From: Thermomicrobiales bacterium
GTDB lineage: Bacteria; Chloroflexota; Chloroflexia; Thermomicrobiales; UBA6265
Assembly (NCBI GenBank): GCA_023957015.1
Contig: JAMLHR010000001.1
Span: 28,841-92,840, forward strand
Direction of reading: 5' to 3'
Length of the DNA stretch: 64,000 nt
Shown here: one piece after another, positions 17,133 through 60,292 of the stretch
Position numbering within the stretch: position 1 is the first letter of the stretch
How the letters are laid out: every line of letters starts with the position of its first letter
Translations under genes and position numbers: made by a program
The notes under the pieces: model-generated
Databases searched by the model: none
What the model was told of the DNA's origin: nothing
The model's input: only the letters and a program-made list of their open reading frames with translations

Positions 17133-18577
17133 CTATCGCGTAAACAAGGCATCCTGTTGGGCACGCTTCCCGTTGACCCAGCCAGTTTCCGATGCGAGCA
17201 CGCCGCGCAACTCCTCGCGGGCGGCATTGACCCGGTTCGGGGCAGTACCACCTGGAAGATCGCGGAGTTCGGTGCTCCCCAAACCATCCAACGGTGGTCG
17301 CTGGGTGGTGAAGACGGGATGAATCGCGGCCCACTCCTCGTCGGTCAGATCAGCGAAGGTCTTGCCCACACGGATACAGGTGCCAACCAGCGCACCAACG
17401 ATCTCGTGCGCTTCGCGGAACGGCACACCAGCCTTGGCCAGGACATCGGCGGCATCGGTGGCGAGCGTGAAGTCCTTGATCGATGCCTCGGCGGTGCGAT
17501 CGCCGTGCACGGTGATACTGGCGATCATCGGTGGGAAGACATCGAGCACAGCGAGAATAGTATCGAAGCTGTCGATCAGCCCCTCCTTATCCTCCTGGCT
17601 GTCCTTGTTGTAGGTCATCGGCTGGCCCTTCATCGTCACCAGCAGACCGATGAGATTGCCGAACCCGACCACTCTTACCCGACCGAGGCTCCGCGATATC
17701 GGCGTTCTTCTTCTGCGGCATGATGCTGCTACCGGTGCTGAAGCGATCGGCGATGGTGATATATCCGAACTCGCCCGAGCTCCAGTAGACCATCTCCTCG
17801 CTCAACCGACTGATGTGCATGGCAATCAGCGAGCAGGCGTAGAGGGCATCGAGGGCAAAATCGCGATCGCCGACCGCATCCATGGAGTTACGACTGATGC
17901 GGCTGAAACCAAGTTCGGCTGCGACCGCCTCGCGATCGAGTGGATACGTCGCGCCAGCCAGGGCAGCACTACCGAGCGCGAGCACATCGGCGCGGTCGTA
18001 TGCCTGACGGACACGCTCAAGATCGCGCAGGAACATCTCACAGTAGGCATGCATGTGGTGGGCAAAGAGCACCGGCTGCGCTCGCTGGACATGGGTGTAG
18101 CCGGGCATGACGCTTATCGGCGTATTTGGTCGAAATCTCGAGCAAGGCATTGATCAGATCGGTGAGACCGCTGGCAACCTCGATCAACTGCCGCTTTGTC
18201 CAGAAACGGAAGTCGTTCGCCACTTGATCGTTGCGGGAGCGACCGGTGTGCAAACGACCAGCTGTCGCGCCAATTAGCTCACGCAGCCGACGCTCGACAC
18301 CGGTGTGGACATCCTCATCGGCGATGGTGAGCGCGAACTCACCCAATTCAACCTCACCCAGGATTGTCCAAAGACCATCGATGATGGTCTCGGCATCGCT
18401 CTGGGCAATCACACCCTGTTTGCCCAGCATGCGCGCGTGAGCGATCGATCCCCGAATATCCTCCCGCACCATACGGACATCGAACCCGACGGAGGCATTG
18501 AACGCCTCCAGCCGCGCATCCGGATTCTCCGCGAATCGTCCACCCCACGCCTTGCGTGTGCCTGATTGTTCTGCCAT
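17133..18577 (-). pseudogene. argH: argininosuccinate lyase, disrupted by two frameshifts
   Basis: Three consecutive minus-strand ORFs cover one ArgH. N-terminal part: WGGRFAENPD...TGRSRNDQVAN. Middle part: [12 protein letters not shown]...[12 protein letters not shown]-terminal part: [27 protein letters not shown].... Frame changes fall near 18108-18116 and 17661-17668. Confidence 0.85.
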
Positions 18578-18600
18578 GTCCATCCCCACGCGACCTATCG

Positions 18601-18684
18601 ATGGTAGAAGGGCAGGTAACCTGCCCCTCAATCACCTACGAAGGGGAGACTAGCTCCCCGACTACCGGTGCCGGTATAGGCACC
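18601..18684. repeat. REPIN-like doublet of inverted GGTAG-hairpin modules plus a third hairpin
   Basis: GGTAGAAGGGCAGGTAACCTGCCC on the plus strand. On the minus strand, GGTAGTCGGGGAGCTAGTCTCCCC (18643-18668). Then GGTGCCGGTATAGGCACC. Homologous to 39526-39590. Confidence 0.7.
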
Positions 18685-18749
18685 CAAATCTATCGGATAG
18701 CGTATCCCATTTCGAACGAGAGGCAGAGCATTCCACTATACTTGGTTGT

Positions 18750-18763
18750 CGAACACGTGTTCT
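18750..18763. promoter_or_regulatory. LexA (SOS) box, Cheo type: CGAACACGTGTTCT
   Basis: Perfect 12-bp palindrome GAACACGTGTTC (GAAC-N4-GTTC). It lies 8 nt downstream of a TATACT -10-like hexamer (18737-18742) and 18 nt upstream of the nurA start. Confidence 0.6.
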
Positions 18764-18780
18764 GAAAGGATGCTTCGTCG

Positions 18781-19833
18781 TTGATTGAAACCGCTCCCCG
18801 CTTCGAACCACTCGCTAGCCGCGTGCAGCGGATCGAGGATGCGCTGCGACGATCCGGCGTGCAACCAATCGATATGCGCAGATCAGGTACGCTGGAGACG
18901 GATATCGCACTACCGGAGTTCGGTCGTAATGAACCGCTCGAATCGCCGACGCTGGAATTCCTGGAGGGAACGCTCGATCACATCGAGGCTCGTCCAATTA
19001 CACGGGCGAACACCACGGCGTTCCGTTGGTTCATTGACGGTAGTCAGAAGACGATGCCGATCTGGCGAGTGGGCGTGGTCCCGATTGTTGTCAGTATCGC
19101 CGTCGCCGGTTTACTGGAACGCAATGATGAGGGCGAATGTAGGTTGGTACCGGGTTCGCTGCGGGAATCGTTGACCTGGATCGTACCTCAGCAAACAGGA
19201 AATCCGGAATTGCGCGCAATCGTGGATATCCTGGAGGCATACAATCAGCAAGTAGTTGATCCGCTTGAAGACCAACCGGATTACCAGCGATTGGCGGGTA
19301 TGTACGATTACGTACTCTACTACGCCAGCGAAACCGCTGGTAGTCAGCGACAGAAAGCCGAGTACGCGATCGCCCAGGCATGGGATGAGGAACACCAACA
19401 CGACCGTTCCGATGGATGGTTGGTTGTCGACGGTCGCTTACCAGTTGATGCCGATCACGCTGTTGGACTCATAAAGAGTCCGGAGGGACAGCACCTCGCT
19501 GGTCGCGATGCGATCACGCTGCTCAATCTTCCTGCCGGACAGAGGACAACGGCCTATCGCATCGCCAGTCGTGCCAGTGCTCGCACGCATTTCTACCAAC
19601 GCATGTGGCCAGCGGAGGGGCTGGACGCCCGCCGTGCACTGATCCGGATCGAATTGAGCGGCACCGATCGCGACACCGACGAGTTCAACGATATCGCGAC
19701 CTGGCTGATGGCCGAGCGTGTCCCCACACCTCGATCGGATAGTCGCTGGCCAACACTGCTGTATCCCGTGCATTTGCTGGAACGCATGCTGAAACAACGC
19801 CTCAATCAGATCACCGCCGGCTGGCCGGTATAG
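18781..19833 (+). CDS. nurA: NurA-like 5'-3' nuclease
   Basis: FRWFIDGSQK and WLVVDGRLP resemble the two DG(S/x)L-type catalytic Asp motifs of NurA. Genomic context with herA supports the call. It has a TTG start, so the exact start is uncertain. Confidence 0.6.
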   Translation: MIETAPRFEPLASRVQRIEDALRRSGVQPIDMRRSGTLETDIALPEFGRNEPLESPTLEFLEGTLDHIEARPITRANTTAFRWFIDGSQKTMPIWRVGVVPIVVSIAVAGLLERNDEGECRLVPGSLRESLTWIVPQQTGNPELRAIVDILEAYNQQVVDPLEDQPDYQRLAGMYDYVLYYASETAGSQRQKAEYAIAQAWDEEHQHDRSDGWLVVDGRLPVDADHAVGLIKSPEGQHLAGRDAITLLNLPAGQRTTAYRIASRASARTHFYQRMWPAEGLDARRALIRIELSGTDRDTDEFNDIATWLMAERVPTPRSDSRWPTLLYPVHLLERMLKQRLNQITAGWPV

Positions 19834-19916
19834 GATTTTTTCACGTGCAGCATTAATCGTATCTGGCTAGGAGTTGTTCATGTCCGTCATTGATCGTATC
19901 GGGGTAGGAGTAGTTC

Positions 19917-22013
19917 ATGCCCGTCATTGATCGCATCTGGGAGCTTCCAGAGTTCACCGATCTGGTCGACCACCATCAAGATGTCATCGGTCGCGTGGTG
20001 AGCAGCGAAAAGGAACCGGCCGGGAGCCATCAGTTCCACTTTTGGGGGGCCGATGATGCGCTGGCATTGGATATCGGCCATATCGTCGTCACCTTCAGCG
20101 AAGAGGCCGCGGTGATCGGTGTGGTCGATGAGCCGCGCCGCTTCAGCGATATGCACAGCTTCCTGGACGATTATTTCGACCGCCGGATGGAGATCGCGCT
20201 GCCGGAGGATGGCCCCACCCAGCGGCCGGAAATCCTGGTCTTTACCGTCAATGTGCTCGCCACCAAGCATCTGCGCAGGGATGTGCAGAGCAATCGTCCG
20301 GCGATCAATGGACCTGTTTACTTCGCGACCGAGGCTGCGATCAACTACGCGCTCGGTGTCGAGCACTTCGATGGCAGTCCGATCCCGGCACTGATGCACA
20401 CCAATGGAAACTACGTGCGCGACGCTGAGGGGAACATCCTTCTCGACGTGAATGGGCACAAAAAATTCCAGAAGACACCACTGTATCTGGACGAGAACTA
20501 TCTCCTCGGTCCGGAGGCAGGTCACGCCAACTGGACCGGCCAGAGCGGTCTGGCCACAAAAACCAGCCACGCGCTGTTCCTGACCAGCAGCATCTTCCAA
20601 ACGCTGCAGCGTTCCGACACGAGCGTGGCCGCCCTAATGTTCAACGTGAAAGGGCCGGATCTGCTCTGGCTGGACAAGCCAGCCGTGCCTGTACCCGGCA
20701 TGGAAGCGCTCTACGATAGCGCCGGTGCCCGGGGACTGGACGATGATCAGTTGAATGCCTACACATCGCTGAGGCTGGAGCCGACACCGTTCGACAACTT
20801 CAATATCTTTGCGCCGTTCAAGCCAGGTCAGGAGCCACAGAGCTACAGTGGCAAGGTTGATCTGGCGGGATTCTCCGACCAACAGATGCTGAACACGCAC
20901 CGCAATATGTCGGGGCAGAATGATCGCGTCTTCCCGATCCTGTGGTCGCTGGATCGGCTGCTCGCCTATCCGCATCGCATCTTTGATCACAACGATCTGG
21001 ACGACAAACTCTTCGGCTTCATCTACGAGTTGCGCGAGATGGGGATCAAGAGCATCGATCAACTCAACAAGCAGTTCGAGAAGATCAACCAGTACTTCGA
21101 AACACCGGACGAGAACGGTCGCACCAGCGACACCTGGAACGGACATCACAAGGCGACGATCCGCAAGGCACAGAATCGATTCAAGGGTCTGCAGGACAAG
21201 TTCGCTGGTTTGATCGCGAACGGCGCGGTCGATTACGGCACGACACCGATGGTGGACTATGCGTTCACTCCACAAGAGTTACGTGTTGTCGATATCAGTG
21301 CCTGCAATACCAATGTGCAAGAGCTCATCGTCACCTCCACCATCAACGCGATCTGGAGGTTGGCGGAGAAGTCCGACATGGGTGTGGATAAACTCATCGT
21401 CTTCGTCGATGAGTTGAACAAGTACGCTCCCGCTGGTGGCGAGGGCGGTCTGCGCGATACGTTGGTCGATATCGCCGCCCGCGGTCGGCACCTGAACGTC
21501 GTGCTCCTGGGGGCGCAGCAGTTCCGCAGCAAGGTCGACGGCGAGATTCTCGGCAACTGCGGCACCAGCTTCTATGGTCGTATCGGCGATGAGGAGATCA
21601 TCAACGCCGCCTATCGCAGCATTTCCGAGACGCAGAAGCAGGAACTACTGGGACTCAGCAAGGGGCGAATGCTGGTACGGCACGCGCATTATCGCTCGCC
21701 GTTGTTCGGCACCTTCCCCTACCCGCCTTCCATCCCGGGCATCTTCGGCCAGCGTGTGTTTGGCGGCGAAGATGGTCCGGCCGGTGATCCAGTCGACGGC
21801 TTAATGGCCCTTCTGGACAAGTACATGGGCGACAATGCCCCCCGTAAGGGAGAGGTCCAGGCACATGCCGACGGACTGGATCGTGAAGACATAGAGCGGG
21901 TACGAAGCAAACTATCCAACGTACTCAATGGCAACACCAACCGACGCAGCAACCCGTGGGAGATGATGAAACGAGAGTTGGCAAACAGTAAGGAAGCGAA
22001 GCGGTTCACATGA
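19917..22013 (+). CDS. herA: HerA-like (FtsK/HerA superfamily) hexameric ATPase/translocase
   Basis: N-terminal barrel-like region (HQFHFWGADDALALDIGHIVVTF). Walker B KLIVFVDELNKYAP. HerA-typical AARGRHLNVVLLGAQQFRSKVDGEILGNCGTSFYGRIGDEE. The Walker A is atypical (TGQSGLATKTS). Confidence 0.7.
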   Translation: MPVIDRIWELPEFTDLVDHHQDVIGRVVSSEKEPAGSHQFHFWGADDALALDIGHIVVTFSEEAAVIGVVDEPRRFSDMHSFLDDYFDRRMEIALPEDGPTQRPEILVFTVNVLATKHLRRDVQSNRPAINGPVYFATEAAINYALGVEHFDGSPIPALMHTNGNYVRDAEGNILLDVNGHKKFQKTPLYLDENYLLGPEAGHANWTGQSGLATKTSHALFLTSSIFQTLQRSDTSVAALMFNVKGPDLLWLDKPAVPVPGMEALYDSAGARGLDDDQLNAYTSLRLEPTPFDNFNIFAPFKPGQEPQSYSGKVDLAGFSDQQMLNTHRNMSGQNDRVFPILWSLDRLLAYPHRIFDHNDLDDKLFGFIYELREMGIKSIDQLNKQFEKINQYFETPDENGRTSDTWNGHHKATIRKAQNRFKGLQDKFAGLIANGAVDYGTTPMVDYAFTPQELRVVDISACNTNVQELIVTSTINAIWRLAEKSDMGVDKLIVFVDELNKYAPAGGEGGLRDTLVDIAARGRHLNVVLLGAQQFRSKVDGEILGNCGTSFYGRIGDEEIINAAYRSISETQKQELLGLSKGRMLVRHAHYRSPLFGTFPYPPSIPGIFGQRVFGGEDGPAGDPVDGLMALLDKYMGDNAPRKGEVQAHADGLDREDIERVRSKLSNVLNGNTNRRSNPWEMMKRELANSKEAKRFT

Positions 22014-23248
22014 GTCGACCGATCCGTATCGCCCATATCACCGATACCCACCTCGGCTATCGGACGCTGAACAAGCCCGATCCTGCGAGCGGTCGCAATC
22101 AGCGCACCGTCGATTTCGAGCGCGCATTCGAGTGGGCTGTCAATGACATCATTGAGCAGGAGAAAAAACCGGATGCGGTCATTCACGCCGGCGATGTCTT
22201 CCACCACGCCCGTCCGACCTGGCAATCGATGCGGCATTTCATCCAGCAATGGCAGAAGATCGAGCGAGCCGGTATTCCATCGTTGGTGATCGCTGGGAAC
22301 CACGATACCCCGAGAGTACGCACAGGCGGCAGCGCGTATTCGATCCTGGAACTTGTGCTGCCAAACACAACGTTCTACGCCGGTTACGAAGACAAGCACG
22401 ATCACGAAACGTTTCAGCATTTGGGTATTCACGTTCATGCGGTGCCGCACGGCGCACTAACCAGCGATAATCCGGTTGTTCCACAGGTGTTCGCCAACCG
22501 AATCAATGTGATGGTGATCCACGGTATGGTGAAGGGCATTCTCAAGCCCGGTCAACATGCCGAACCTGGTGAAGAGGAGCTTGATACCAGTCTCCTGGAC
22601 CACGGTTTCGATTACATCGCACTCGGCCACTATCACCAGCGAATGCAACCACCGGGTATCGGCAACGGTTGGTATGCCGGAAGCACTGAACGCAATGGCT
22701 GGGGCGACTACGAGACACAACCGGGCTACCTGATGGTGACACTCAACGGACCTGGCGAGGGTTTCGACGAGCCAGAAGTTCACAAGATTCCGGAAGATAT
22801 CGTGCGTCCGATGATTGATCTGAAAGCGACGCATGCAGAGAACATGCGCGGTCCGGAGATCGCAGAGGAAGTACTGCGCAAGATCAACAGCCTGAAAGAG
22901 AACGAGGAGACGCGACAGCGCGCCATGGTTCGGGCTCGCATCTGGGATGCGGAACGCGGCGATCGCCGCGAGGCGGAGTCGATTCTCAAACGTGAGGCAG
23001 CTGATCTCGTCTGGCACTTGAGCGTACCAACGGAAGCATCAGGCAATGCGAATACCGGTGAGCGACCAGAGGTCGCGCAAGAGTTCCCGGACATCCGCGA
23101 ACTCTTCGGGCAGTTCGTGGAAAGTCGCACCGGTATCGCCTTCAATGATCGCTTCGCCCAGATTTTCCGCGAGCGGGGTGATGCCACATTGGCCGAAGCT
23201 ATCGCGGCGGCAGTAACGGTCGCGCCGGAGGAGGATGAACTCACATGA
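22010..23248 (+). CDS. mre11: Mre11/SbcD-family metallophosphoesterase nuclease
   Basis: Phosphoesterase motifs IAHITDTHLG, HAGDVFH, VIAGNHD, VMVIHGMV and ALGHYHQ. ATGA overlap with herA. Confidence 0.85.
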   Translation: MSRPIRIAHITDTHLGYRTLNKPDPASGRNQRTVDFERAFEWAVNDIIEQEKKPDAVIHAGDVFHHARPTWQSMRHFIQQWQKIERAGIPSLVIAGNHDTPRVRTGGSAYSILELVLPNTTFYAGYEDKHDHETFQHLGIHVHAVPHGALTSDNPVVPQVFANRINVMVIHGMVKGILKPGQHAEPGEEELDTSLLDHGFDYIALGHYHQRMQPPGIGNGWYAGSTERNGWGDYETQPGYLMVTLNGPGEGFDEPEVHKIPEDIVRPMIDLKATHAENMRGPEIAEEVLRKINSLKENEETRQRAMVRARIWDAERGDRREAESILKREAADLVWHLSVPTEASGNANTGERPEVAQEFPDIRELFGQFVESRTGIAFNDRFAQIFRERGDATLAEAIAAAVTVAPEEDELT

Positions 23249-26049
23249 TCCTCTCTCGCGTGCATATCACCAACTACAAGCAATACGGTGGCAACCAGAC
23301 GATCGAGATTCCGCAGGCGGGAACAGTCGGTGTGATCGGCACTAACGGCGTCGGCAAGACGACGCTGTTCGAGGCGATCGAATGGGCGCTCTACTCGCCC
23401 TCTACAATCAAGGCCGCGGATGTGCGACCGCGCACCTGGCGAGGGAACACCCTGGTCGTGGTTGAACTGGATGATCCGGCCACGGGTCAGCAGTACGTCG
23501 TCGAACGCGAACTCGGCAAGGGGTCAGCCAAGGCACGTATCTATCGTCGCGATGCCAACGGATACGAAGAGAAGATCGTCGATGGCGCTGCCCAGGTCAC
23601 GCAATACGTCGCGAATACGCTGATCGGGCTGGAACATTCTGCCTTTGTCGCGACGTTCTTCACACGACAGAAAGAGCTTGGATTCTTCAACGGCTCCCCG
23701 ACCGCGCGGCGGCGAGAAGTCGGCAAATTGCTCGGTCTGGAGATCATTCGCGATGCGCAAGAGCGCATCGCCGAGGTGCGAAAGCGTGCCCAGGCGGACG
23801 CTCGCAGCTATCTGAGCATGAGCGAAGAACAGGCAAAGGAACGCGATTTCGCAGCCGAGCTTGTTAGTGCCGACGGAGCGATCGCTATCGCTCAGCGCGA
23901 GGTTGCGGAGGCGCAGGGAGCCCTCGAGATCGCACATCAGCAGGTTGCGGCGGCGCAGATGCAGCTGGCAGCGATCGAGAAACTGCGCGACGATGATGCC
24001 TCGTTGAATGAGCAGATCCTACAGAAACAACGCGAGCACGATCTGGCGCAACAGCAGATGATGTCGGCAACCCAGGAACTGGAACGCCTGGAAGCACTAG
24101 AAAGGGAGCGAATCGACCTGCTGCCAATCGCGTCACAAGTCGAGGAGCTGACCGAAAAAGAGACGGCACACAGCGAGCGACGACAACGAGCACTCCGCAG
24201 ACGCGAGTTGGCGCAAGCGCTATCAGCGATTGATCTTCGCGAGCAAGGTATACAAGCAGCGATCGAGCAAGCGATCACAGACACGCCGCCACCCGATCAC
24301 AATCCCCTATGGTCCACCACCGATGTCACGCAGGCGGTAGCCTGGGCCGAGAGAATTCGCCTGGATGAGATCGAGGCCCGAACAGAGGCGATTCAGCACG
24401 CGAAAGCCGTGAGCGACAACCTCGATCAGGAGCAGAAGCGGTTAGCCAGGTTCCTGGATCGTGTCGCCGTACTCCAGAGACAGATGAGCGATGCAACCGC
24501 TGATGGCGATCCGGCAATCAGGATCACGGCAATCGACGCACGGTTACAGCAAGTTCAAGGGAGCTCGGCGGCCGTAGAAACGACCAGGAAACGGCTCCAG
24601 ACTGAACTTCAGAAGAACGAGCGTATTCTCTCCAATCTTGAGCATCAGCACGAGGGCGAAGTCTGCCCGACCTGTCACCGGCCATTCACTGCAGATGACG
24701 CGGCACACGTCACCGAGGTCTTCCGGAAGGAGATCGCCAGCTTGCGGGATCAGTTGCTCGCGGTGCACCAGCAGATCACCGCGAACGACGAACAACTACG
24801 TGCGCTTCAACCGGAGCGGCAACGACTCATCGAGACGAGCAAGGTACTCGATGGTGTGCGGTCATCATTGGCGACCGGGCAACAATATGTCGCCGATCAA
24901 CAGGCGGCCGTGCAGCAGCTAACCGAGCAACTCTCCGCCGCAGTCGTCACAGCTGGGTTGTCCGGTCCACCAACAGCGGAGGATATCGACGTCGCCAGGG
25001 AGCAACTTAAGAAGTGGCAGCAAATCGTCAACGCACTGAAGGTCATCAAGCGTGCCTTGGCCGAACTCCCAAGATTGGCGGCGGAACGGGTGCCCGTAAC
25101 GGAGGAAGTAGCAGCGCTCGGTGAGGTTGTCTACGACGAGGCGGCTCATCGCACGGTGATTGAGCAGTTGAACCAGGCGCGGCAGGCACAGATCACGGCA
25201 CTACGCATTGATGGCGAGCTCTCGCGGAAAGCGACGGTCGAGCAGTCGAAGGAGACTGCCGCGCGTATCCTGGGGGGAGCGCGGCAGACGATGGCCACGC
25301 TACAGGACCAACGATCACGGCTCGGATTCGATCCGACCACGCTGCTCACGGCTCAGAACGAACACAATCGCGCACTCGAGCACGAACGGACCGCCACGCA
25401 GCATCACTTCCGCCAACAGACGCAACTCCGTGACGCCGAAACGGCGAGAACCCGGATTACTGACGATCGGAAGCGGCTGGAGCAGCTCACGCGAACTGCC
25501 GAGATCAAACGTCGCGAGGCCGATGATCTGGATCTGATGTACAAGGAGTTCAGTGAGTTCGAGCGGTATGCCGCCGCCTGGTATGCGCCGCGGCTGGGCG
25601 AGATCACCAGCGATCTGGTGGCACAGGTGACGGATGGCAAGTACGACCGGGTCGATTTCGATAACAACTTCTCGATCCAGGTCTACGATCGCGATGATGA
25701 GAAGTACCCCTATGAGACCTTCTCCGGTGGCGAACGTGACGCGATCGCGCTCTGCGCGCGCATCGCGCTGAGCCGACTCATCGGCGGTGCCAGCGCCAAT
25801 CCACCGGGCTTCCTGGTGCTGGATGAAGTCTTCGGATCGCTCGATCTGGAGCGACGACAGCGGTTGCTAGAGATGTTAGGCATGATCACCCATGCCGACC
25901 ACCAGTTCCAGCAGGTGTTCATCATTAGCCACGTGGATGACATCCGCACCTCACCAATCCTGGACGAGATCTGGCAGGTGAAGGAGACGGGGGATGGCAT
26001 CAGCCAGATTGAAGTTGTCGGTGCTGGCACGGATATTGGAGAGATATGA
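23245..26049 (+). CDS. rad50: Rad50/SbcC-family SMC-like ATPase with zinc hook
   Basis: Walker A GTNGVGKTTLFEAIEWALY. Long coiled coil with a central CPTCHRPF hook. Signature FSGGERDAIALCARIAL and Walker B FLVLDEVFGSLD. ATGA overlap with mre11. Confidence 0.85.
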   Translation: MILSRVHITNYKQYGGNQTIEIPQAGTVGVIGTNGVGKTTLFEAIEWALYSPSTIKAADVRPRTWRGNTLVVVELDDPATGQQYVVERELGKGSAKARIYRRDANGYEEKIVDGAAQVTQYVANTLIGLEHSAFVATFFTRQKELGFFNGSPTARRREVGKLLGLEIIRDAQERIAEVRKRAQADARSYLSMSEEQAKERDFAAELVSADGAIAIAQREVAEAQGALEIAHQQVAAAQMQLAAIEKLRDDDASLNEQILQKQREHDLAQQQMMSATQELERLEALERERIDLLPIASQVEELTEKETAHSERRQRALRRRELAQALSAIDLREQGIQAAIEQAITDTPPPDHNPLWSTTDVTQAVAWAERIRLDEIEARTEAIQHAKAVSDNLDQEQKRLARFLDRVAVLQRQMSDATADGDPAIRITAIDARLQQVQGSSAAVETTRKRLQTELQKNERILSNLEHQHEGEVCPTCHRPFTADDAAHVTEVFRKEIASLRDQLLAVHQQITANDEQLRALQPERQRLIETSKVLDGVRSSLATGQQYVADQQAAVQQLTEQLSAAVVTAGLSGPPTAEDIDVAREQLKKWQQIVNALKVIKRALAELPRLAAERVPVTEEVAALGEVVYDEAAHRTVIEQLNQARQAQITALRIDGELSRKATVEQSKETAARILGGARQTMATLQDQRSRLGFDPTTLLTAQNEHNRALEHERTATQHHFRQQTQLRDAETARTRITDDRKRLEQLTRTAEIKRREADDLDLMYKEFSEFERYAAAWYAPRLGEITSDLVAQVTDGKYDRVDFDNNFSIQVYDRDDEKYPYETFSGGERDAIALCARIALSRLIGGASANPPGFLVLDEVFGSLDLERRQRLLEMLGMITHADHQFQQVFIISHVDDIRTSPILDEIWQVKETGDGISQIEVVGAGTDIGEI

Positions 26050-26129
26050 CGAAGTCATCCTGAGCATCGCGAAGGATCTCGGTATCACCATCCGTCGAAT
26101 GGTTGCATATGGCATTATCTGAACGAGAT

Positions 26130-26283
26130 TGATGGCCGATCGGCTTCATCGGTAGCGTCACCCCTTGTGGGTGACAACGACCATCTTCCGCCTTCGGAAG
26201 TCACCGCACATAAAGTGCGGTGGTACCGCCAACACCGCCTGCCTCGGGGATAAGGGCCTACGGCCACCTATGGTACCCCGAGG
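26130..26283. repeat. array of five consecutive GC-rich hairpins, including a GGTAG/GGTAC-hairpin doublet
   Basis: Hairpins: GATGGCCGATCGGCTTCATC; GGTAGC-GTCACCC-CTTGT-GGGTGAC; CTTCCG-CCTT-CGGAAG; CACCGCAC-ATAAA-GTGCGGTG-GTACC; GCCTCGGGG...CCCCGAGGC. Confidence 0.65.
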
Positions 26284-26310
26284 CTACGCCGACAAACATG
26301 GACTGAGTCT

Positions 26311-27705
26311 TTGAGTAGCACCAACACCGTTCCATTCGAAGCAGTTACGACCCGATCCGGTCCGCGGACACAGACCGCCTGGGATACAGCCCGGGAACAT
26401 CTGCCGTTCGCGTTCCTGGTCTGGCTGGCGCATTTCATCGTCACCCAGGGTGTCGCCATCCTCTCCTTCCGCTACAGCGAGGAGCGGTCGGTGCGAATCA
26501 TCCGCGGGACGAGCGATTTCGTGGCCGATATCGGTTCGAACTCGCGCGCGTACGCATCGTCACTCCCGCCGCTGGAGCCGCTTCCCGGTTGGCAACACTG
26601 GCTGGTGGAACCTTTCCGAAACTGGGATGGAACCTGGTACCGACACATCGCGGAATCCGGTTACGACGATCGTTTGCCCGCCCTCTCCGCATTCTTTCCA
26701 CTTTATCCCTGGCTGATGCGATGGGGGCATAATCTCACCGGCTTGCCGGTGGAAACAGTCGGCTGGATCATCTCGCAACTCGCGTTCTTTGGAGCACTCG
26801 TCTTCATCAGCCTGCTAGTCACCACGGACTTCAATATCAACATCGCACGCTGGACGATGATCGCCATCGCCGTCTTTCCCACGGCCTTCTTCTTCAGCGC
26901 GATCTACACGGAATCGCTCTTTCTGTTCCTGGCGGTCACCACACTATGGGCGGCCCGCAAGAACGATTGGCTCCTTGCCGTCCTGCTCTGCTTCCTGGCG
27001 GTACTGACGCGTTCGGCTGGCATCATGCTGGGGATTCCGCTGGCGGTGCTGTTCGCGCAGCAGCACGGCCGCGATCTCCGGGCCTGGTTCCCAAAAGTGC
27101 TGCTGGGCTTGATTCCGCCGCTGGGTCTGATGATCTTCGGCATGGTGCTGCGGAGCAACGGACTGGCGTTCTTCGATTGGCAAAACCAGCAGTGGCAATG
27201 GAATCGGTTCTCGGCCACACCGTGGCGCACGTTTACGTGCGTCACCCAAGGTTGTGAAGCGACGGTGCGACAGTTTGGCAACAGCGTCGATCAGTTCACG
27301 GTCTATCCGGTGCGATTCGACTGGATCAGCCTCGCCTTTGAGGAACGATTCCGCTGGAGCTATATCACCAGCACGGAGTACCGCACACTCATCGCCGATA
27401 GTCAGGCGCTTGATCTGATGGTAACGATCCTCGCCTTCGCGCTGATCATCGTTGGGCTGAAGAAGCTGCCGCTCTACTACAGTGCCTGGTCGATTGTGCC
27501 CATGATCGTGCCGCTCCTGGCACCCAGCAGCGTCTCACCATTGATGAGCATGCCGCGATTCGTGCTGCCATTGGTACCGCTCTTCGTGATGGCAGTGCTG
27601 CTGATCTACCCGCACAAACGCACTGGTATCGTGCTCGCCAGCTTCTCAGCGATGCTGCTGATGCTGTATACGGCGCAGTTCGTGATGTGGTACTGGGTGG
27701 CGTAA
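26311..27705 (+). CDS. polytopic membrane protein, PIG-V/mannosyltransferase-like
   Basis: More than 8 hydrophobic segments. WDGTWYRHIAESGYDD and FFPLYPWLMRW resemble the GPI-mannosyltransferase-2-like bacterial glycosyltransferase family. TTG start. Confidence 0.5.
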   Translation: MSSTNTVPFEAVTTRSGPRTQTAWDTAREHLPFAFLVWLAHFIVTQGVAILSFRYSEERSVRIIRGTSDFVADIGSNSRAYASSLPPLEPLPGWQHWLVEPFRNWDGTWYRHIAESGYDDRLPALSAFFPLYPWLMRWGHNLTGLPVETVGWIISQLAFFGALVFISLLVTTDFNINIARWTMIAIAVFPTAFFFSAIYTESLFLFLAVTTLWAARKNDWLLAVLLCFLAVLTRSAGIMLGIPLAVLFAQQHGRDLRAWFPKVLLGLIPPLGLMIFGMVLRSNGLAFFDWQNQQWQWNRFSATPWRTFTCVTQGCEATVRQFGNSVDQFTVYPVRFDWISLAFEERFRWSYITSTEYRTLIADSQALDLMVTILAFALIIVGLKKLPLYYSAWSIVPMIVPLLAPSSVSPLMSMPRFVLPLVPLFVMAVLLIYPHKRTGIVLASFSAMLLMLYTAQFVMWYWVA

Positions 27706-59473: not shown

Positions 59474-60292
59474 ATGTCAGCATCATTCTCGATCTGCGCC
59501 ACCTGTGGCGTGGAGCATAGTCATCCACTTCCCGACATCTGCGCGATCTGCGCCGATGATCGGCAATACCTGCCAGCGGACGGCGTTCAGCGCTGGACAA
59601 CACTGGATGAACTTCGTGACGGACGGTCGGTTCATCTTGAGGAGATTGAGCCACGTCTGTTCGCGATGAGCGTGACACCATCGGTCGGTATCGGTCATCG
59701 CCCGCTGCTGGTACAGACCGATCAGGGCAACCTTCTCTGGGATCCGCCAGGCTACATCGACGACGAAGCCATCCAGCAAATCCTTGCACTCGGCGGGATT
59801 CGCTGGATCGCTGGTAGTCATCCTCACATGTTCGGTGTGCAACTGGAGTGGGCGGCTGCATTCGATGCCCTCGTGCTGGTGTCAGAGAGGGACGCCGGAT
59901 GGATCGCGCGTCAGGGTGAGGCGATCCAACTCTGGGATGACACGCTAGAACTTGCACCGGGATTGACGCTCTATCGGTTCGGCGGGCACTTCGCCGGCAG
60001 CTCCGTGGCTCACTGGAGCGGTGCCGATGGCAAGGGAGTGATGCTAAGTAGCGACACGTTCGCATCGAATGCGGACAAACGCACCGTAACCTTCCTGCGC
60101 AGTTATCCGAATCGGATTCCGCTGTCGGCTAGCACTGTCCAACGCATCATCGCAGGAATCGCGGAACTGGAGTTCGATCGGCTCTATGCGAACTTCCCCC
60201 CTTCGATTACCGCTGATGCCAAGGCCAAAGTGCTGCACTCGGCAGAGCGCCACATCGGCTGGGTTTCGGGAGATTTCGACGATCTGACCTAA
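59474..60292 (+). CDS. MBL-fold-like hydrolase with N-terminal CxxC...CxxC zinc-ribbon
   Basis: MSASFSICATCGVEHSHPLPDICAICADD, then LLWDPPGYID...IAGSHPHMFG. The family assignment is tentative. Confidence 0.45.
   Translation: MSASFSICATCGVEHSHPLPDICAICADDRQYLPADGVQRWTTLDELRDGRSVHLEEIEPRLFAMSVTPSVGIGHRPLLVQTDQGNLLWDPPGYIDDEAIQQILALGGIRWIAGSHPHMFGVQLEWAAAFDALVLVSERDAGWIARQGEAIQLWDDTLELAPGLTLYRFGGHFAGSSVAHWSGADGKGVMLSSDTFASNADKRTVTFLRSYPNRIPLSASTVQRIIAGIAELEFDRLYANFPPSITADAKAKVLHSAERHIGWVSGDFDDLT

Follow-up and report, generated by a model that had tools for sequence, protein, structure and literature searches.

A predicted LexA operator upstream of an archaeal-style nurA-herA-mre11-rad50 operon in a Thermomicrobiales bacterium

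A palindromic box in front of the nurA-herA-mre11-rad50 genes of a Thermomicrobiales bacterium is very probably a real LexA binding site, and in that case DNA damage would turn on these archaeal-style repair genes. The box lies in the 64,000-nucleotide stretch of DNA analysed here (the window), and the explanation that best accounts for the data overall, which we hold with good confidence, is that GAACACGTGTTC serves as the operator of the single LexA of this genome and that the operon is damage-inducible. That the box acts as a functional operator through which LexA represses nurA-herA-mre11-rad50 is likewise likely. A preliminary description of this DNA had proposed that an archaeal-style end-resection module is under SOS control, and the proposal is supported computationally by the regulon, the score of the box, the LexA protein and conservation.

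Read directly from the window sequence, positions 18750 to 18763 are CGAACACGTGTTCT, and the core of this site, GAACACGTGTTC at 18751-18762, is a perfect 12-bp palindrome. We predict that the whole site (18750-18763, assigned to neither strand) is a LexA operator of the Cheo-box class, based on its sequence, its matrix score, its conservation and the motif found at lexA and recA. The palindrome GAAC-ACGT-GTTC had been placed within 18750-18763 beforehand, and both the coordinates and the sequence were confirmed. Upstream of it, the hexamer TATACT (18737-18742, plus strand) is the probable −10 element of the nurA operon promoter, as judged from its sequence, its conservation and its match to the −10 of lexA. 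Seven nucleotides separate the hexamer from the C of CGAAC, the palindrome itself starting 8 nt after the hexamer, and the nurA TTG start codon (18781) follows 17-18 nt after the end of the box, so that the distances first given, 8 nt from TATACT and 18 nt to TTG, were also reproduced. Between the box and the start codon, AAAGGA (18765-18770, plus strand), 10 nt before the TTG, is by its sequence a probable ribosome-binding site, and a purine-rich block occupies the same position in the upstream alignment of the four closest relatives. A simple sigma-70 promoter scan of 18500-26400 found no promoter. Because no consensus −35 element was detected for the nurA promoter, it is from the conservation of TATACT alone that its −10 is assigned.

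If TATACT is the −10 element, transcription would start near 18749-18751, and since the box starts 8 nt after the hexamer, it would cover approximately +1 to +13 of the nurA-herA-mre11-rad50 transcript. The site had been called a repressor-roadblock position, a slightly loose term: the box probably lies over the transcription start, and LexA bound there would block polymerase binding or open complex formation, not an elongating polymerase. From this arrangement and the comparisons below, we infer that LexA binds the box, where transcription starts, that the four genes are co-transcribed and that damage induces them. In the undamaged cell, a LexA dimer on the box would keep RNA polymerase from forming a productive complex, and expression of the operon would be low. 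Damage would give rise to single-stranded DNA and RecA filaments, which would stimulate the self-cleavage of LexA at its Ala-Gly bond; with the operator vacated, the four end-processing genes would be transcribed along with recA, recR, ruvB, uvrB, uvrC and the gene of a uvrD-like helicase.

The gene names in the preliminary description, nurA-herA-mre11-rad50, proved correct, as judged by the fold of NurA, the match of HerA and the family matches of Mre11 and Rad50. The first gene, nurA (18781-19833, plus strand, TTG start), encodes a 350-aa nuclease with a NurA fold, recognised from its predicted structure and gene context. Its product, ORF1, has no Pfam, NCBIfam or PDB sequence match, and all of its 216 homologues in a large protein collection are unannotated. 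An AlphaFold model built from a 40-sequence alignment (pLDDT 86.8, pTM 0.86) matched D. radiodurans NurA (7f6d_G, E 7.4e-11) and T. maritima TM1739 (1zup, E 6.6e-9 to ~1e-8), each with a probability of 1.00 and a TM of ~0.5, and these were the sole strong structural matches. On the fold of this model and the gene context, ORF1 is assigned to the NurA family, with its RNase H-like/PIWI-like fold; the position of its start codon is common to the closest relatives, either as TTG or as GTG. The second gene, herA (19917-22013, plus strand), encodes a 698-aa HerA-type hexameric ATPase/translocase (ORF2), which matched the D. radiodurans HerA chain 7f6d_B with an E-value of 1.6e-35; the archaeal HerA model of NCBIfam gave a marginal match and Pfam gave none.

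The third gene (22010-23248, plus strand) encodes a 412-aa phosphoesterase of the mre11/sbcD type (Metallophos, 4e-14), whose top NCBIfam matches are archaeal Mre11 models at 1e-23, below their cut-offs. The fourth (23245-26049, plus strand) encodes a 934-aa SMC-like ATPase of the rad50/sbcC type with a zinc hook (SMC_N, Rad50_zn_hook and SbcC_Walker_B), and its top NCBIfam match is archaeal Rad50, over the full length at 2e-46, also below the cut-off. The herA stop and the mre11 start overlap by 4 nt, as do the mre11 stop and the rad50 start. No convincing plus-strand terminator was found between the operon genes, the nurA-herA gap being empty and one weak hairpin lying inside herA. Relatives share the gene order nurA-herA-mre11-rad50 and carry no further box between the genes. 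In the genome as a whole, an assembly that is ~91% complete, no AddA or RecB scored above the family cut-off, and the only partial AddA/RecB matches came from two UvrD/PcrA-type helicases (773 and 844 aa). RecJ is present, which leaves it and the operon as the visible candidates for end resection.

Of 61 related genomes, 39 had a nurA-like gene, and 29 of the loci had enough upstream DNA to be included in a footprint set (NurA identity 37-73%; range −150 to −10; one mismatch at most). The box is present upstream of nurA in 28 of the 29 relatives, compared with 45 of 706 control windows (6.4%) of equal length from the same loci. When all 256 palindromic 4-N4-4 motifs were ranked, GAAC came first (28 loci) and its variant GCAC second (15), with the rest at 9 loci or fewer. 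In the alignments of the nurA upstream regions, conservation is confined to two blocks, TATACT and the box, and the remainder has diverged, which supports the earlier reading of a −10 hexamer followed by an operator. An exact TATACT precedes the box at 24 of the 28 loci, at a distance given as 6-17 nt in one count and as 0-11 nt in another. Two layouts recur, TATACT-N8-box, as in this genome, and TATACT abutting the box.

The four closest genomes retain the box as CGAACACG(T/C)GTTCT. Many genus-level relatives carry a fixed variant, TAGCACACCTGTTCG, in which the half-site GCAC replaces GAAC and which scores 8-14 bits with the matrix of this genome (described below). This pattern suggests that the GCAC-variant box is a weaker operator still under selection, and repression may be weak or differently tuned in the relatives that carry it. 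Among these relatives, in L030-L035, TAGCACACCTGTTCG is directly followed by a second conserved block, (C/T)GTATACGTAC, which may be a second −10-like element or the site of another protein.

The same box precedes lexA in all 14 relatives examined, with ACACGAACAnnTGTTCG as by far the usual form, and recA in all 13. In a more distant family of the same order (f5, loci L084-L088), the nurA orthologues, at ~30% identity, lack the box, whereas lexA and recA do carry it. Two one-mismatch matches upstream of nurA in this family were rejected as boxes, the sequence being tRNA-like (TTCGAACC). In three further families (f2-f4), no nurA orthologue was detectable. Because lexA and recA are boxed in family f5 and nurA is not, the motif is best read as an order-wide property of LexA and its recruitment to nurA as a trait of the family of the present genome (f1): GAAC-N4-GTTC is the predicted LexA motif across the order, and its presence at nurA is, on these comparisons, lineage-specific.

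LexA might bind the box and yet have little effect, either because another promoter is the main one or because binding only fine-tunes a high basal level, so that the genes would be effectively constitutive, as has been reported of repair genes in some archaea. We consider this unlikely, although it is the most probable of the alternatives considered. In its favour, the search for a −35 element found none, a mismatched half-site is tolerated in many relatives, family f5 manages without the box, and a Sulfolobus UV transcriptomics study reports no rise in repair-gene expression (PMC2246294). However, TATACT and the box are tightly coupled, in two fixed spacings over 24 loci, as selection on a repressible promoter would give, and the perfect palindrome is kept in the five closest genomes within surrounding DNA that has diverged. 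Both points speak against this reading.

To place the nurA box among the other candidate sites of the genome (2.84 Mb in 104 contigs, 57.9% G+C), a weight matrix of 20 positions was built from 17 sites with the nurA site left out; its seeds were hand-picked from exact matches in A/T-rich intergenic DNA, so the matrix is not fully independent. The recA box scored 23.9 bits, the box of the uvrD-like helicase gene 20.8 bits, and the two lexA boxes 17.1 and 15.4 bits. At 19.1 bits, the nurA box falls inside the range spanned by the recA and lexA boxes. Twelve sites that were not seeds scored at least 15 bits; ten of the twelve are intergenic, though the genome is only 13% non-coding, and five of these ten precede repair genes.

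The intergenic exact sites with A/T-leaning spacers, together with the one-mismatch sites from the matrix, make up the regulon boxes. They lie 80 nt from the gene start at recA (contig position C8:54314), ~70-110 nt at lexA (two boxes, C72:7263 and C72:7291), 19 nt at the uvrD/pcrA-like helicase gene, 2 nt at ruvB and 21 nt at uvrB, and 15 and 5 nt from the ORF starts of uvrC (C2:26860) and recR (C10:50893), respectively; a DinB_2-family gene has a box directly upstream, and dnaN has two. One of the lexA boxes lies inside a TTGACA-N18-TATACT promoter, whose −10 hexamer is identical to the TATACT of nurA. The scan of repair-gene upstream regions called for in the preliminary description thus returned boxes at recA, lexA, uvrB, uvrC, ruvB, recR and the uvrD-like gene, and lexA and recA, which could have used a different motif, both carry boxes of the GAAC-N4-GTTC type. 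The boxed gene list is unmistakably that of a predicted SOS regulon. The uvrC box is followed by a TATAAT just 6 nt ahead of the ATG, a layout that points to a transcript with a very short leader or none.

A single LexA is encoded, a 213-aa protein (contig C72, beginning MKKLSERQ) that matches TIGR00498 over its full length and above the cut-off (6e-52). Its cleavage site (AAG) and Ser/Lys dyad (GLSM serine, TLKK lysine) are intact and, like the winged-helix N-terminus, align with T. maritima LexA (3k2z); no further S24-family protein was found in the assembly. Another transcription factor sharing the GAAC-N4-GTTC specificity could in principle bind the nurA box instead of LexA, and the TAGAAC-N4-GTTCTA boxes beside mobile-element-like genes (ParB-like, Fic, primase-zinc-finger-like) could constitute a separate regulon of this kind. 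We regard this as very improbable, since only one S24 repressor is encoded and since the motif precedes lexA in all 15 genomes examined and recA in all 14, a hallmark of LexA autoregulation, as well as uvrB, uvrC, ruvB and recR. In B. subtilis and M. tuberculosis, experiments have established GAAC-N4-GTTC as the motif bound by LexA (PMC3323433).

The argininosuccinate-lyase-type gene argH (17133-18631, minus strand) lies on the other side of the box. Here it is split over three frames, with the N- and C-terminal Lyase_1 halves in separate ORFs, and it is either a pseudogene or the product of an assembly error. A palindromic box has no strand, the start of argH is ~120-170 nt away on the opposite strand, and argH is the divergent neighbour in the closest relatives too, so the box might be thought to control argH, or both genes, rather than nurA alone. 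There is scarcely any chance of this, because TATACT reads as a −10 on the plus strand only and is always found on the far side of the box from nurA. Even in relatives in which the rest of the upstream sequence cannot be aligned, the box accompanies nurA, and the split argH would be an implausible SOS gene.

The window alone does not set the box apart from chance. It contains one other exact GAAC-N4-GTTC, at 60164-60175, placed in a coding region by a crude gene caller, so the earlier statement that no other intergenic copy occurs in the window holds; the two matches stand against an expectation of 0.84, and a count of two was reached in 16 of 100 shuffles. Because this count is within chance, the significance of the nurA box comes from evidence outside the window. 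The whole genome has 77 exact GAAC-N4-GTTC sites compared with 44 for the reversed control, and 23 of these lie between genes, compared with the ~10 that the 13% non-coding fraction predicts (2,696 genes from a crude codon-usage caller, 87% coding). That the nurA box is a functionless coincidence, as the two matches in the window might allow, has next to no probability: such a reading is effectively refuted by the comparative data, the box standing at 28 of 29 orthologous promoters versus 6.4% of controls and being kept inside diverged flanks, and the score within the recA/lexA range also speaks against it.

LexA proteins of the Cheo-box class recognise the inverted repeat GAAC-N4-GTTC, usually with CGAAC...GTTCG/T flanks and an A/T-leaning RNRY spacer, and in the Chloroflexi the motif is said to have been described in Dehalococcoides by Fernandez de Henestrosa et al. 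in J Bacteriol in 2002. The assignment of the nurA box to the operator type of Firmicutes and Actinobacteria agrees with the established motif of B. subtilis and M. tuberculosis (PMC3323433). There is no difference in kind between those operators and the one predicted here, the palindrome being the same and the repressor being of the same type, a winged helix joined to an S24 self-cleaving domain. The nurA operon would add a member to a well-known LexA circuit, with the same repressor and box as in Firmicutes.

LexA control of Mre11/Rad50-type genes also has precedent, and in this respect the logic is conventional. In S. aureus, sbcDC is repressed by LexA through the SOS box CGAACAAATGTTCT, whereas E. 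coli sbcCD is not under LexA control (PMC11442139). As at the predicted promoter of the operon here, a Cheo-type box lies at the promoter of genes for an Mre11-like nuclease and a Rad50-like ATPase, and CGAACAAATGTTCT differs from the nurA box in the spacer only. In contrast to the four genes here, for which archaeal Mre11/Rad50 models score best and regulation is predicted, S. aureus sbcDC consists of two genes of the bacterial SbcCD type, without NurA or HerA, and its LexA regulation has been shown experimentally. A second precedent is yhaONM (sbcEF-type) of B. subtilis and B. pumilus, which is lexA/SOS-regulated and SOS-induced (PMC3896406). It resembles the operon here in being a putative double-strand break repair cluster, in encoding an Mre11-like exonuclease along with an SMC-like ATPase, and in belonging to a Cheo-box LexA regulon, but it is a Firmicutes cluster of different gene content that lacks a NurA-HerA pair, and its induction has been measured.

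The same four gene families are clustered in the archaeal operon, and the models that score highest for Mre11 and Rad50 of this genome are archaeal. To our knowledge, archaea have no LexA, and the control logic predicted here is purely bacterial, unlike that of the archaeal operon. The radiation response of Deinococcus runs via PprI/DdrO and is not known to run through LexA, and as far as we know Deinococcus has neither AddA nor RecB, for which nothing scored above the cut-off in the genome here either. In thermophilic archaea, nurA-herA-mre11-rad50 form one operon, according to the mention of Constantinesco 2004 in PMC9960219, and in Sulfolobus the response to DNA damage is under the control of Orc1-2 (PMC6061795). 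Among solved structures, the nearest relative of both ORF1 and ORF2 is NurA-HerA of D. radiodurans (PDB 7F6D; PMC9960219), which is bacterial and acts in end resection. In that study, nurA and herA are handled as a two-gene operon and LexA is not mentioned (PMC9960219), whereas here the pair is joined with mre11-rad50 in one operon behind a predicted LexA box.

Few bacteria have NurA-HerA (PMC11442139), and next to nothing has been described of how it is regulated in them. In literature mentioning LexA, NurA and HerA together, we found no report of LexA control of NurA-HerA. A description of the Thermomicrobiales SOS regulon was likewise not found in the searchable literature, and an earlier comparative study had left out Sphaerobacteraceae for lack of a defined motif (PMC3323433). 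The sites listed above give a first outline of the Thermomicrobiales LexA regulon, with TATACT as −10 consensus. If the proposed regulation is true, the SOS response in this Chloroflexota family would induce recA, recR and ruvB and, along with them, all the parts of an end-resection machine, and in a genome without AddA or RecB above the cut-off, the start of homologous recombination would itself be damage-inducible. In its widest form, the proposal is that in this Thermomicrobiales family, which lacks AddAB/RecBCD, NurA-HerA-Mre11-Rad50 was fixed ancestrally as a core part of the LexA regulon and serves as the damage-inducible system for double-strand break resection; it would be the first SOS-controlled NurA-HerA, and a case of a bacterial regulator capturing an 'archaeal' module via a fixed TATACT-plus-operator cassette. 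We favour this wider proposal with some reserve.

Several further boxes in the genome, outside the window, were noted. The strongest of all have the form TAGAAC-N4-GTTCTA and score 20-31 bits (C26:11096, C63:692, C11:26201, C33:15955, C62:5205 and C62:6454). They adjoin a ParB-like gene, a Fic-domain gene, a gene whose 204-aa product has a DnaG-type zinc finger, and several ORFs without annotation; these neighbours may represent prophage remnants or mobile elements under LexA control. A one-mismatch box, TGTAGAACATTTGTGCGAGA (16.1 bits, C2:62749), overlaps the start of a DUF2851 gene, a possible member of the SOS regulon. Two boxes 36 nt apart (C27:14657-14704) lie between dnaN and a divergent gene for a 184-aa slr1353-like protein; a beta-clamp gene under LexA control would be unusual.
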